Shown here piece by piece: positions 9,392 through 27,954 of a stretch of DNA of 64,000 nucleotides. Origin of the DNA: a phage. The stretch lies in sequence record PZ445488.1; one strand, 5' to 3'. The notes beneath the pieces were generated by a model, which saw nothing but the letters and a program-made list of their open reading frames with translations, ran no database searches and was not told where the DNA came from. The number at the start of each line of letters is the position of its first letter. Position 1 is the first letter of the stretch. The translations under genes and the position numbers were made by a program.

Positions 9392-9862
9392 TTAATCATG
9401 TTTCCACACCCCATCGGTATTTGACCAAAGTCGCTGATTATCTGATCCTCGCCACAGCTTTTTGGTCGGAAGATTTTTCTCATACTTCCCATCAATAATA
9501 ACATCAACATATTTAAGCATTTCTAGCTGTTTAATATCTTCAAACTTATATCCTGTCCACAACCAAATGCTTTTATTGGGATAAAGATTTTTTACTGTTT
9601 GAACAATGTAATGAATAACATCTCGGTTATCAGGATAGAGAGGGTCTCCTCCGGTTATAGTTAATCCTTCTATATAATCATTATTCAAACATTCAATTAA
9701 TTGTTCTAGTGTTTCACCAGTGAATGGAATACCATTTCTAGCGTTCCATGTTGATTTATTATAACACCCTTCGCATTTATGCAAACAACCTGTAACGAAA
9801 AGAACGACCCTACAACCAGGGCCATTCACAAAATCGCAAGGATAAAATCTATCATAATTCAT
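9392..9862 (-). CDS. nrdG: anaerobic ribonucleotide reductase activating protein NrdG (radical SAM)
   Basis: 156 aa; CLHKCEGC radical-SAM cysteine cluster; immediately downstream of nrdD. Confidence 0.9.
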   Translation of the reverse strand: MNYDRFYPCDFVNGPGCRVVLFVTGCLHKCEGCYNKSTWNARNGIPFTGETLEQLIECLNNDYIEGLTITGGDPLYPDNRDVIHYIVQTVKNLYPNKSIWLWTGYKFEDIKQLEMLKYVDVIIDGKYEKNLPTKKLWRGSDNQRLWSNTDGVWKHD

Positions 9863-11676
9863 TGGTGTTTAACCCTATGCATGATTTCTTTATTTTTACC
9901 GAGATTAAATCCGCGTTCGTTCGGATTTCCAAGATAACCGCATGTTCTTCTTATGGTGTTCATCTTTTTAGGATCAGTTTCTCCACAAACTGAACAAACA
10001 AATCCGTTTTCAGTAGGAGTCATTTCATGGGTACTTCCACACGTAAAACATTTATCTACTGGCATATTAACACCAAAATAATCTAAATGTTGTGCAGCAT
10101 AATCCCACACAGCCTCAAGACCTTTTAGGTTATTTTTCATATCAGGAAGTTCAACATAAGAAATGTGACCACCTGTCGCAATGAAATGATATGGCGCTTC
10201 ACGAGAAATCTTTTCAAACGGAGTAATATTTTCTTCTACTGAAACATGGAAACTATTAGTGTACCAGCCTTTATCAGTGACATCCTTTACACTTCCATAT
10301 TTTTCTGTATCAAGTTTACAGAAACGATAACACAAGTTTTCAGCAGGAGTAGAATATAAACTAAAAGCAAATCCAGTTCTTTCAGTCCACTGTTTAAGAT
10401 GAGCATTCATTTTAGTTAAAATTTCTTGTCCAATATCACGACCAACAAGAATATTCAATTCATGAATACCAATATATCCTAAAGACACTGAACTTCTACC
10501 GTTTTTAAATAACTCAATTATATCATCGTCGGGTTTAAGACGAACACCAAATGCACCTTCTTGGTAAAGAATAGGAGCAACAGTAGCTTTAACTCCTTTT
10601 AAGGAACTAATTCTACACATCAAGGCTTCAAAGCACAGATCCATTCGTTCATTAAATAACTCAACAAATTTCTGTTCATTGAACTGTGTTCCAATATAAG
10701 AATCTAACGCGATGCGAGGAAGATTCAGTGTTACAACACCGAGATTATTACGTCCATCAAGAATTTCATTACCAGTCGAATCTTTCCATACACTCAAGAA
10801 ACTACGGCAGCCCATTGGAGAAACAGGAATAGATGAGCCGGTGATAGCTTTATTATTCTTAACAGAAATAATGTCAGGATACATTCTTTTGCTTGCACAC
10901 TCTAGAGCGAGTTGCTTAATATCATAGTTCGGATCGTCTTTATAAAGATTAACACCCTCTTCGACAAACATAACAAGTTTAGGGAAAATAGGAGTTATTC
11001 CATCACGACCAAGACCTTTAATCCGATTTTTCAGAATTGCTTTCTGAATCATTCGTTCGGTCCAATCAGTTCCAGTACCAAATGTAATTGTTACAAAAGG
11101 CGTTTGCCCGTTTGAACTAAAAAGAGTATTTACCTCATACTCATAAGCTTGAAATGCGTCATATACATCTTTTTCTGTTTTAGATTGAGCATAATTCAGA
11201 ATGTCTGGTATTTGCCATTTTTCTGCATCTTCAACATGTTTAGCGTATGTACGTTTAACATAAGGAGAAAGAACTTTATCGACATTCGCAAATGTAGTTC
11301 CGCCGTACTGATGTGAAGCAACTTGTGCAGTAATTTGTGCCATAATTGCAGTAGCAACACCAATCGATTTAGGCGTTTCAATTTGAGCATTGCCCAATTT
11401 AAATCCGTTCTCAAGCATCCCCTTTAAATCGACTAAACAGCAATTGGTAAACGGAAGAGCAGGAGAATAATCAATATCATGCATGTGGATAATTCCACTT
11501 TCATGCGCATTCATAATAAAAGACGGGACCATATTTTTGGCAATGTGCTTAGACACAATACCAGCCATAAGGTCCCGTTGAGTTGGAAAAACACGAGAAT
11601 CTTTATTAGCATTCTCGTTCAAAAGATCTTTATTAGTTTTATAAATTAATCCTTCAATTTCTTTTTCAATTTTCAT
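9859..11676 (-). CDS. nrdD: anaerobic ribonucleoside-triphosphate reductase NrdD (glycyl radical enzyme)
   Basis: 605 aa contiguous ORF; C-terminal zinc-ribbon CFTCG...CSVCG and glycyl-radical motif RTCGYLG; T4 NrdD length; no intron. Confidence 0.95.
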   Translation of the reverse strand: MKIEKEIEGLIYKTNKDLLNENANKDSRVFPTQRDLMAGIVSKHIAKNMVPSFIMNAHESGIIHMHDIDYSPALPFTNCCLVDLKGMLENGFKLGNAQIETPKSIGVATAIMAQITAQVASHQYGGTTFANVDKVLSPYVKRTYAKHVEDAEKWQIPDILNYAQSKTEKDVYDAFQAYEYEVNTLFSSNGQTPFVTITFGTGTDWTERMIQKAILKNRIKGLGRDGITPIFPKLVMFVEEGVNLYKDDPNYDIKQLALECASKRMYPDIISVKNNKAITGSSIPVSPMGCRSFLSVWKDSTGNEILDGRNNLGVVTLNLPRIALDSYIGTQFNEQKFVELFNERMDLCFEALMCRISSLKGVKATVAPILYQEGAFGVRLKPDDDIIELFKNGRSSVSLGYIGIHELNILVGRDIGQEILTKMNAHLKQWTERTGFAFSLYSTPAENLCYRFCKLDTEKYGSVKDVTDKGWYTNSFHVSVEENITPFEKISREAPYHFIATGGHISYVELPDMKNNLKGLEAVWDYAAQHLDYFGVNMPVDKCFTCGSTHEMTPTENGFVCSVCGETDPKKMNTIRRTCGYLGNPNERGFNLGKNKEIMHRVKHQ

Positions 11677-24638: not shown

Positions 24639-24978
24639 TTGCTACAAGTCCTCTAGTATAAGAGTCAACTAGACGGTCCACCATAGAATTGCATGCTGCC
24701 TTATCTTTAGGTTCCGCCACCGAGCATTCTAATATTTGCCATTTTTTATAGTATCTTTTAATTAAGGTAGATGCCTTGAACCTACTAGACGCCCCATCTT
24801 TTTCTCCGTCTTTATACGCATATAACAATTTTTGTGAAAAATCTACTTTACACTCTTGACTTTTACCACAATAATCAGACGCCGTTCTGTTTGTATACTC
24901 CGTTACATCAGTATATGTAGTATTAGCAAGAGCGTTAAATGAAACCAAGCTAACTATTAAAGCCAACATTTTGGTCAT
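24631..24978 (-). CDS. small secreted protein; positional counterpart of T4 vs
   Basis: 115 aa (same length as T4 Vs by memory); N-terminal signal-like segment; position between macrodomain gene and vs.1-like gene. Confidence 0.4.
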   Translation of the reverse strand: MTKMLALIVSLVSFNALANTTYTDVTEYTNRTASDYCGKSQECKVDFSQKLLYAYKDGEKDGASSRFKASTLIKRYYKKWQILECSVAEPKDKAACNSMVDRLVDSYTRGLVASD

Positions 24979-25517
24979 TCTTTTATTTCCAGTAGTTTAT
25001 TTGATTTAAGGTAATTAGCCTTTTCTAGGACTTCAGAAGCATATTTACTTCCAGCACTTGTCTTCCATCCCGCATTATATGAGGATATAGCTTTTCTTAT
25101 ATCCCCGTTATGTATATTTAACCAATAAGAAAATTCGATATAAGCCCATCTTGCTGAATTAGACCGCTTAGATAGCATTTTCTTAATTTGGGCATCAGTC
25201 ATATTATAACCAAGCTGGTTAATTCTTGCCCTCATTGTTGGTAGATAGTTTTGGAACATTCCATACGCATGGTGACCTTTCTTATCTTTAAGATTAATAC
25301 CTGCGGATGATTCTTGCCATAGTATTGCGGCCATTATGTATCCAAGTCCTTTCTTATGCATATTTTCATGCGTTTTAAATTTTCCGTCCTTAGAAAACTG
25401 TTCCCCAAACTGATAAGCATAATTCAAGTTATCGAGTTGGACATTACTAAAAGTATGCTCGGAGCTATGTGCTGATAACGAAAGAGCAAATAGACCAGCG
25501 AGTAGTGCTTTTCTCAT
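24975..25517 (-). CDS. lytic transglycosylase (SLT-domain)-like protein with signal peptide (T4 vs.1 position)
   Basis: 180 aa; signal peptide; WQESS...GMFQ motif typical of soluble lytic transglycosylase catalytic region. Confidence 0.6.
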   Translation of the reverse strand: MRKALLAGLFALSLSAHSSEHTFSNVQLDNLNYAYQFGEQFSKDGKFKTHENMHKKGLGYIMAAILWQESSAGINLKDKKGHHAYGMFQNYLPTMRARINQLGYNMTDAQIKKMLSKRSNSARWAYIEFSYWLNIHNGDIRKAISSYNAGWKTSAGSKYASEVLEKANYLKSNKLLEIKE

Positions 25518-26527: not shown

Positions 26528-26741
26528 AAGGAATTTCCTCATCGGTGGCAAGGTCATATTCGACCAATTGGATAGGCTCATTAATACCATATCCACGTAC
26601 AATGATATCAGTTGTCGGATAGTTTCCAGTAATATCACCCATTCTAAATGCTTCAGTGAATGATTGCTCGCCAGAGCAACTAAACCAGGCGGCAAAACAT
26701 TTTAAAACATCTTCAGACCCTTCTATAATCAATTTAGCCAT
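26517..26741 (-). CDS. hypothetical protein
   Basis: 74 aa ORF, ATG start. Confidence 0.4.
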   Translation of the reverse strand: MAKLIIEGSEDVLKCFAAWFSCSGEQSFTEAFRMGDITGNYPTTDIIVRGYGINEPIQLVEYDLATDEEIPYVD

Positions 26742-27103
26742 TATAGGCTCTCAGTAAAGGTACGAGCGATAACGTCGCGCTGCTGTTCCGGAGTCAGAGA
26801 GTTAAAGCGAACTGCATAACCGGATACACGGATGGTCAGCTGAGGATATTTTTCCGGATGCTTAACTGCATCTTCCAGAGTTTCGCGACGCAGAACGTTA
26901 ACGTTCAGGTGTTGACCACCTTCAATTTTAACTTTAGGTTGATGTTCAATTTCAATTTCACGGGCATTCAAACCGTAGAAAATTTCCGGGTCTACAATAG
27001 CGTCTTCTTTAAAAGTCTTAGAGACAATAATCCGGGCTTGAGTACCGTCTTCAAAATAAATAGTGCCTTTGTGTGTGCCTTCAAGAATTTGATATGCTTT
27101 CAT
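26741..27103 (-). CDS. autonomous glycyl-radical cofactor (GrcA/YfiD-like; T4 Y06I-like)
   Basis: 120 aa; C-terminal glycyl-radical motif [27 protein letters not shown]. Confidence 0.8.
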
Positions 27104-27109
27104 ATAACC

Positions 27110-27418
27110 TCAATTAGAAAATAAATTTATCCAAGTTTTTTCTTTAATCAAAAATGGGTCAGAATTAAACGCCATTAAACTTTGAGTGATTAATCCCTTA
27201 AACGGCCCATCAATAAATTCCATTTTGAAATGCGGAATACTAGTCATCAACCGTGCATTAGGAGCAGTACAAAGAACCTGCTGCCCTGCGAACGGACCTT
27301 TAGTCAAACGATATCGTTTAGGTTTAAAATGGTAAATCTCGTAATTTTCTACAAGAGCCCTTTTATTGCATACTGGGCTGTTATAACAATACTCAAAAAC
27401 TTCAATAGTGGTCATCAT
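27110..27418 (-). CDS. hypothetical protein
   Basis: Track start is TTG; in-frame ATGs at 27418/27415. Confidence 0.35.
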   Translation of the reverse strand: MMTTIEVFEYCYNSPVCNKRALVENYEIYHFKPKRYRLTKGPFAGQQVLCTAPNARLMTSIPHFKMEFIDGPFKGLITQSLMAFNSDPFLIKEKTWINLFSN

Positions 27419-27954
27419 TGCATTCCAATCACAAAAAATTGAGGACGAGCAATACCGCCGATGCAATATTTGCTTTTGCAACAGTGTTGGACTGTTTTAA
27501 TATGGACATTGTAAATCTTATCCATATCAGGAGCTTTAATAGGCTCGTCAATTATGTACAGAATACGAGAAAGCGTTAATCCACGGAATTTAGAACCTTC
27601 ATTGCCAATAAAACTACGGACAGAATCAGTAAATAAACGGAATCGAATATCATCGCTAGAATAACGAGAAAATTCTTTTTTAATGTTGCCAGCAGAAATT
27701 TTAGCATAGGCTGAAGTATTAGAAAGAACAATAACTGTTCCACCGTCATACAGCCAATTAACAGCAAAATTAGTTACTGCAGTCGATTTACCTGATTGTC
27801 GGCCGCCGTCTAAACGAAGTGTACAGTACTGCTTGAGTACGTCTTCAAACGGTGGGATATAACCGTTCTTACAAATTTCTTCTACTCTAGCATCAGAATG
27901 GTGTGTAAAAGCATTCATCAGGGATAGATAAGGTCCAGTTAAAAATGTTCTCAT
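27415..27954 (-). CDS. hypothetical P-loop protein
   Basis: 179 aa; GGRQSGKST Walker A-like motif. Confidence 0.5.
   Translation of the reverse strand: MRTFLTGPYLSLMNAFTHHSDARVEEICKNGYIPPFEDVLKQYCTLRLDGGRQSGKSTAVTNFAVNWLYDGGTVIVLSNTSAYAKISAGNIKKEFSRYSSDDIRFRLFTDSVRSFIGNEGSKFRGLTLSRILYIIDEPIKAPDMDKIYNVHIKTVQHCCKSKYCIGGIARPQFFVIGMQ

Follow-up and report, generated by a model that had tools for sequence, protein, structure and literature searches.

The window, by which we mean the whole 64,000-nt stretch of phage DNA that was analyzed, carries an orthologue of the T4 gene vs.6 together with the genes of the anaerobic ribonucleotide reductase (RNR) NrdD and its activase NrdG, all on the minus strand:

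26741..27103, minus strand: vs.6 coding sequence (120 aa plus stop), an ATG-started open reading frame (ORF) orthologous to T4 Vs.6/Y06I; its product is a phage-encoded autonomous glycyl-radical cofactor
27108..27111, minus strand: Shine-Dalgarno sequence GAGG, 4 nt upstream of the vs.6 ATG and overlapping the vs.7 stop codon, as read from the sequence
26810..26830, minus strand: RVSGYAV, the glycyl-radical loop (residues 92-98), without variation among 48 aligned homologues
26819..26821, minus strand: radical glycine G95, aligned to YfiD G102 and PflB G734
9859..11676, minus strand: nrdD, class III (anaerobic, formate-dependent) RNR, 605 aa, ~98% identical to T4 NrdD (PDB 1h78)
9392..9862, minus strand: nrdG, ORF for the radical-SAM activase of NrdD, 156 aa

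The original prediction, which gave no strand, had called the ORF at 26741-27103 a GrcA/YfiD-like glycyl-radical protein and had quoted a C-terminal motif as its radical loop. Both assignments were confirmed. Vs.6 matched the Pfam family Gly_radical (PF01228) over residues 59-101 with E=2e-18 and 67.3 bits (cutoff 22.2), the NMR structure of E. coli GrcA/YfiD (6owr) with E=2e-42 and PflB with 3e-26, and it matched PHROG 1209 over its full length (6e-63). By these profile scores the glycyl-radical match is far beyond chance. The quoted motif covers residues 90-108 and contains the radical glycine G95. The T4 homologue Y06I, also named in the prediction, exists as vs.6 (NP_049730.1, 120 aa), and nrdD and nrdG proved to be intact ORFs. 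The score against the NCBIfam equivalog TIGR04365 (spare_glycyl; aligned residues 18-120) was 159.1 bits and stayed under the 170-bit cutoff because the N-terminal half of Vs.6 is divergent; this shortfall notwithstanding, RefSeq calls the RB69 and T4 orthologues GrcA. The gene is an ordinary one for a T-even phage, and what its T4 orthologue does biochemically is already known.

The gene order vs.8-vs.7-vs.6-vs.5-vs.4-regB in the window is the same as in RB69 and T4, and the phage is an RB69-like T-even. The vs.6 DNA is 98.1% identical to that of RB69 and 98-99% identical to those of RB69-like phages (Mosigvirus), and megablast-level matches were found in 731 phage records. The vs.6 stop codon overlaps the vs.5 start as TAATG, again as read from the sequence. 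A scan for consensus promoters and terminators around vs.6 gave 7 promoters against 7.1 in shuffled sequences and 2 terminators against 2.0; the counts do not exceed those of the shuffles, and the scan is therefore uninformative. Two other ORFs of this region have features of their own. The vs.8 orthologue (27415..27954, minus strand), a conserved T-even ORF, contains a P-loop-like GGRQSGKST motif; it forms its own family (phrog_1488) and has a weak PHROG match to the ATPase region of the large terminase (phrog_2, E=1e-5). The vs.1 orthologue (24975..25517, minus strand; 180 aa) begins with a signal-peptide-like N-terminus (MRKALLAGLFALSLSAHS), and a likeness of T4 Vs.1 to SLT lytic transglycosylases has been reported.

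Homologues of Vs.6 were found in 1592 phage records, spread over three groups of phages that are unrelated to each other. When 48 homologues were aligned, 40 columns were invariant, including those of the RVSGYAV loop. All phage copies examined, whether from T4-like, T5-like, jumbo or Aeromonas phages, have kept a domain of the pyruvate formate-lyase (PFL) type. Three metagenomic T-even-like copies (P0015, P0017, P0018) are 100-105 aa long, in-frame internal deletions having removed the glycyl loop wholly or in part; such copies may be alleles that lost their function in nature, or else errors of assembly. On the bacterial side, an E. coli-type GrcA of 137 aa in NCBI (P0039) has a 10-residue tandem duplication that doubles the radical loop. 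Bacterial grcA is normally chromosomal and adjoins ung; a full-length grcA is, however, annotated on a 275-kb replicon of Klebsiella sp. WOUb02 labelled as a plasmid ('plasmid unnamed4', L030).

The two halves of vs.6 were compared separately with E. coli grcA. Codons 1-60 are 27% identical in amino acids and 48% in nucleotides with a GC content of 0.36, and codons 61-120 are 100% identical in amino acids and identical at 177/180 nucleotides with a GC content of 0.50. Two of the three nucleotide differences from K-12 in the C-terminal half lie in the last three codons, where the phage has GAG and CTA against GAA and CTG in the host. Since GAG and CTA are common to the Klebsiella phage KMI12, the host-like patch was delimited to codons 61-117, over which vs.6 agrees with E. 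coli K-12 grcA at 170/171 nucleotides and the GC content is ~0.50 against ~0.36 in the flanks. The gene can be divided as follows:

26924..27103, minus strand: phage-specific N-terminal half, codons 1-60 (MKAYQILEG...ARIIVSKT...), corresponding to the YfiD N-terminal half
26753..26923, minus strand: codons 61-117, putative patch of host origin; it makes up the structured glycyl-radical domain and corresponds to YfiD 68-124 and PflB 700-756
26741..26752, minus strand: phage-type 3' end, codons 118-120 (GAG AGC CTA) plus TAA, the right-hand edge of the patch

The junction at codon 60/61 nearly coincides with the published domain boundary of YfiD. Many Enterobacterales have the identical 60 residues, so the protein identity of the C-terminal domain is no evidence for an origin from E. 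coli, and only the DNA comparison bears on it. Over the 180-nt C-domain, K-12 grcA is identical to that of another Escherichia species at 177/180 positions, of Citrobacter at 166/180 and of Salmonella at 150/180, and the segment was matched at 95-99% by all 5426 complete E. coli genomes. As a control, the same 60 residues are encoded by three further phage copies whose DNA identity is only 150/180. By these comparisons, plain conservation of the gene does not account for the likeness. The DNA comparisons indicate that vs.6 is a mosaic, the catalytic half of which was copied recently from host grcA.

The same comparison was extended to phages of Klebsiella. Bacteria of the Klebsiella group have a variant of the C-terminal half (...TLLDAVEHPEKY...) that is matched exactly in the Klebsiella Jiaodaviruses KMI12 and L119, in which a C-terminal half of 57% GC sits atop an N-terminal half of 35-36% GC. 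The best 80 loci of the contig scan included no grcA of the K. pneumoniae group, and the Klebsiella grcA DNA was taken from contigs located by another protein search. Identities to E. coli K-12 grcA and to Klebsiella grcA over the 171-nt interior were:

Window copy: 170 of 171 to E. coli K-12, 149 of 171 to Klebsiella
T4 copy: 169 of 171 to E. coli K-12, 148 of 171 to Klebsiella
KMI12 copy: 148 of 171 to E. coli K-12, 161 of 171 to Klebsiella
L119 copy: 149 of 171 to E. coli K-12, 163 of 171 to Klebsiella

Twenty-one sites discriminate E. coli from Klebsiella grcA. All 21 were E. coli-like in each of four T-even copies, the window included (p ~1e-6), and 16-17 were Klebsiella-like against 3 E. 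coli-like in the Jiaodaviruses (p ~0.003); other phage lineages were mixed at these sites. Because the patch is of the E. coli type in the T-evens and of the Klebsiella type in the Jiaodaviruses, the host has apparently supplied a new catalytic half on no fewer than two occasions. Between the window and T4 there are 18 differences in the 180 nucleotides of the N-terminal half versus 3 in 170 in the patch (Fisher p=0.001; p=0.009 for third positions), which indicates that the patch of the Escherichia phages is younger than the split between Tequatrovirus and Mosigvirus (T4/RB69). Repeated conversion in each genus and a single conversion followed by spread through phage-phage recombination cannot be told apart for this patch. 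A mosaic with host tracking appears to be undescribed within the searchable literature. As it stands, vs.6 offers a clean and datable case of a virulent phage gene of which the functional half has been renewed with chromosomal DNA of the host, specifically for each host genus, and the mosaic shows a way in which lytic phages hold auxiliary metabolic genes compatible with their host partners.

The N-terminal half has a different history. A signature, MKAYQIL.G..GTI...ARIIVSK, is common to the copies of T4-like, T5-like, jumbo and Aeromonas phages and is absent from bacterial GrcA, and this half could be aligned to YfiD by HMM from residue 18-21, at only 27% identity. Its dN/dS between the window and T4 is ~0.12, indicating that it is under purifying selection. 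AlphaFold2 (AF2) predicted a small beta domain for residues 1-50 with a pLDDT of ~90, a confidence that may partly stem from bacterial sequences in the alignment; the linker (residues 56-67) scored <50 and the C-terminal half ~70-79. In Foldseek searches with the AF2 model, the C-terminal half matched 6owr (E=9e-6), the sole significant match, and superposed on the glycyl loops of glycyl-radical enzymes (GREs) with an rmsd of ~1 A. A KOW/SH3-like fold was considered for the N-terminal half and no assignment was made, the matches being insignificant (E>0.1).

These properties bear on two other ways in which the protein could act. In the first, Vs.6 would be a decoy that titrates the PFL-activating enzyme (PFL-AE) or blocks PFL to stop host fermentation, or simply a neutral passenger, the remnant of a captured host gene, as half of the gene being a recent copy of host DNA might suggest. 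We regard this as very improbable. A passenger would hardly stay intact in so many phage records of three unrelated groups with a conserved N-terminal half, an invariant radical glycine and an entirely invariant loop, nor would it be expected to have its own ribosome-binding site and translational coupling to its neighbours; as for a decoy, the T4 protein is described in PMC8683613 as restoring, not inhibiting, PFL activity.

In the second, Vs.6 would also switch on intact, radical-free PFL or serve TdcE and similar enzymes, so that fermentation and formate would rise quickly once a cell is infected, with or without prior damage by oxygen, and the N-terminal half would choose the targets. GrcA is reported to restore the full-length inactive PflB variant G734A in vivo (strain table of PMC12338860; Kammel and Sawers 2022), and the YfiD N-terminal half governs binding and activation according to PMC8683613. 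Since that half of YfiD is described there as important for binding of cleaved PFL, the phage N-terminal half, which is phage-specific, selected and confidently predicted to be folded, could behave differently. The fold search, however, returned no significant match for it, and the AF2 confidence is subject to the alignment effect mentioned above. We consider such a wider action a serious candidate, although on balance rather unlikely.

The original prediction had treated it as unresolved whether the phage protein services host PFL or the phage's own NrdD. As regards PFL this is outdated, because rescue by T4 Y06I has been reported (PMC8683613). As regards NrdD, Vs.6 would have to dock on oxygen-cleaved NrdD and be activated by NrdG, and ribonucleotide reduction would thereby be restored. 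There are grounds for this idea. The same oxygen cleavage hits all GREs, and spare parts for GREs other than PFL have been proposed (PMC8683613). A role in "nucleotide metabolism" was suggested by Nolan et al. 2006, only from a shared Pfam domain; a survey of phage RNRs leaves the vs.6 gene unmentioned. The pair nrdD/nrdG was also present in every GrcA-carrying lineage inspected, and in three of these the gene lies within the nrd operon. The order is nrdD-nrdG-vs.6-nrdC-nrdH in the Aeromonas phage PX29, where vs.6 overlaps the end of nrdG, nrdD-grcA-nrdG in the Salmonella jumbo phage SE_PL and nrdD-grcA-DUF4326-nrdG in K64-1-like jumbo phages. In the window, vs.6 is located ~15 kb from nrdD and ~17 kb from nrdG.

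The sequences of the two proteins nevertheless argue strongly against repair of NrdD. The glycyl domain of T4 NrdD (PDB 1h78/1hk8) resembles Vs.6 in having a glycyl-radical loop and in belonging to the GRE superfamily, and both proteins are encoded by the phage of the window. The NrdD loop, however, reads RRTCGYLG and is preceded immediately by a CxxC...CxxC zinc ribbon, whereas that of Vs.6 reads RVSGYAV; Vs.6 contains no cysteine, and therefore the zinc ribbon of NrdD cannot form in it. BLASTP of Vs.6 against the NrdD of the window gave a best E of 6.3, at NrdD residues 403-446, away from the C-terminus and the glycyl site. A spare part of the NrdD type was sought across the window and none was found: glycyl loops occur in Vs.6 and NrdD only, and RxxCGY in NrdD only. 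Even the grcA copies within nrd operons encode PFL-type domains (GGQHLNVNV...RVSGYA[VI]RF), which agree with E. coli GrcA at 41-53 of 60 residues, and host grcA, rather than nrdD, was apparently the source of the catalytic half. The distribution points the same way, since 2914 phage records contain NrdD versus the 1592 that contain a Vs.6 homologue, which leaves at least ~1300 NrdD records without one; 324 of the NrdD records come from Vibrio phages, which do not figure in the ten commonest organism names of the Vs.6 matches. Direct repair of NrdD is, in our judgment, hardly credible. What stands of the proposed link to the anaerobic reductase is the location of the gene within the nrdD-nrdG operons of other phages. 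This placement suggests a coupling at the level of the pathway, not a physical repair of NrdD, and the synteny appears to be undescribed within the searchable literature.

Several further observations were made at these loci. The DUF4326 protein whose gene separates the grcA homologue from nrdG in K64-1-like jumbo phages (L176-L178, 5368..5715) is 115 aa long and has no NCBIfam match. In the T5-like phage OSYSP (one IMG/VR contig; L153, L161) a grcA homologue is present at both ends of the record and is possibly part of the long terminal repeat, and in the T5-like phage Stitch it is located among tRNA genes, away from nrdD. In a lineage of ~150-kb phages (L174, 3484..4308; P0036 context), a radical-SAM gene of 274 aa lies two genes upstream of the grcA homologue. 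It was considered as a phage PflA and rejected, since it is QueE-like (7-carboxy-7-deazaguanine synthase family, E=1e-14), which suggests that this lineage may modify its DNA with deazaguanine.

The operon order also raises the question of the activase. Vs.6 could dock on PFL and receive its radical from NrdG instead of, or besides, host PflA, and the phage would then be freed from the level of the host activase. The overlap with the end of nrdG in PX29 and the position between nrdD and nrdG in SE_PL and the K64-1-like phages would fit such an activation, as would the radical-SAM core common to NrdG and E. coli PflA, which are 34% identical over the 73 aa of this core. The two enzymes are alike only in this cluster-binding region, however, NrdG having 156 aa against 246 aa in PflA, and the genes vs.6 and nrdG are far apart in the window. 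Moreover, the loop of Vs.6 is the exact substrate peptide of PFL-AE, which accepts even the bare RVSGYAV heptapeptide as a substrate mimic (PMC10665898), and PFL-AE is the reported activator of the T4 protein (PMC8683613). Activation by NrdG is thus considered improbable.

According to PMC8683613, which cites Wagner et al. 2001 (Knappe and co-workers), YfiD and T4 Y06I are spare-part proteins on which PFL-AE installs a glycyl radical and which, in vitro, return activity to PFL that oxygen has cleaved; they are named there as the only two validated spare-part cases. We consider it likely, with a probability of about 0.78, that Vs.6 is the phage version of GrcA/YfiD, a spare glycyl-radical domain for host PFL, and we infer in addition a supply of formate to NrdD and a catalytic half derived from the host. 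After cleavage of PflB by oxygen at Gly734, residues ~54-120 of Vs.6, its C-terminal half, would substitute for the PflB segment 693-759 that has been lost. Host PflA would abstract a hydrogen from Gly95 in the RVSGYAV loop, the radical would be handed to Cys419 of PflB, and pyruvate would again be converted into acetyl-CoA plus formate.

T-even infection shuts off host gene expression, so that host grcA could not be induced. The phage would keep its own copy because neither could damaged PFL be replaced nor host grcA be induced during infection. Formate is a product of PFL, and running PFL would provide both energy and the electron donor of the phage NrdD. T4 NrdD uses formate as electron donor (PMC4390871; PMC4493059), and a supply of formate to NrdD would explain why the gene is found within the nrdD-nrdG operons of other phages. 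We found no paper in the literature search that ties PFL-derived formate via Vs.6 to phage NrdD, and a search for a vs.6 phenotype returned none; the coupling of Vs.6 to NrdD at the level of the pathway is plausible. The catalytic half may stay host-like through overwriting recombination with host grcA, from E. coli in the T-evens and from Klebsiella in the Jiaodaviruses.

A more comprehensive scheme combines these elements. The gene would consist of two modules, a phage-specific N-terminal half for targeting that is inherited vertically or exchanged among phages and a catalytic C-terminal half that is repeatedly overwritten by the grcA of the host genus; it would serve to secure PFL-derived formate for NrdD, hence its placement with nrdD and nrdG elsewhere. 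We put this combined scheme forward tentatively, at somewhat less than even odds. As for the target itself, we regard the question as closed in favor of host PFL and not NrdD. The proposed route from PFL through formate to NrdD links a host fermentation enzyme to the synthesis of DNA precursors by an anaerobic phage enzyme, is testable, and would be relevant to the replication of T4-like and T5-like phages in the low-oxygen gut.

Among the known systems, T4 Vs.6/Y06I is an orthologue with the same gene position and the same length (120 aa), and both genes contain the E. coli-type host patch. The two proteins are 90% identical in the N-terminal half and 98% in the C-terminal half (T4-type copies ~95% overall), and the 6-7 amino-acid differences are nearly all in the N-terminal half. 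One that is not is Arg73 in the window, where T4 has His; with Arg73, the C-terminal domain of the window protein is identical to that of E. coli GrcA.

PflB shares with Vs.6 the C-terminal domain. In its residues 700-759 (within 693-759; PDB 1h16, 2pfl), 48 of 60 (80%) are the same as in Vs.6 61-120, including GGQHLNVNV. Vs.6 differs in being a free-standing protein of 120 aa without the 690-residue barrel, and the DNA of its C-terminal half is far closer to grcA (177/180) than to pflB (137/180).

E. coli GrcA/YfiD has the same two-part architecture, the RVSGYAV loop, and the same expected activase (PflA) and target (cleaved PflB). Its residues 68-127 correspond to residues 61-120 of Vs.6, over which the proteins are identical. 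The N-terminal half of Vs.6 is 7 residues shorter and diverges as described, starting with the phage signature MKAYQILEG where GrcA has MITGIQITKA..NSFWLL. It is also predicted to be folded, whereas residues 1-60 of YfiD are reported in PMC8683613 to be disordered and needed for binding of cleaved PFL and for efficient activation, and residues 61-127 to be structured. E. coli grcA lies at the chromosomal ung-grcA locus, whereas vs.6 is phage-encoded and part of a phage operon. Judged by domain, loop and C-terminal half, Vs.6 belongs with the GrcA/YfiD autonomous glycyl radical cofactors.
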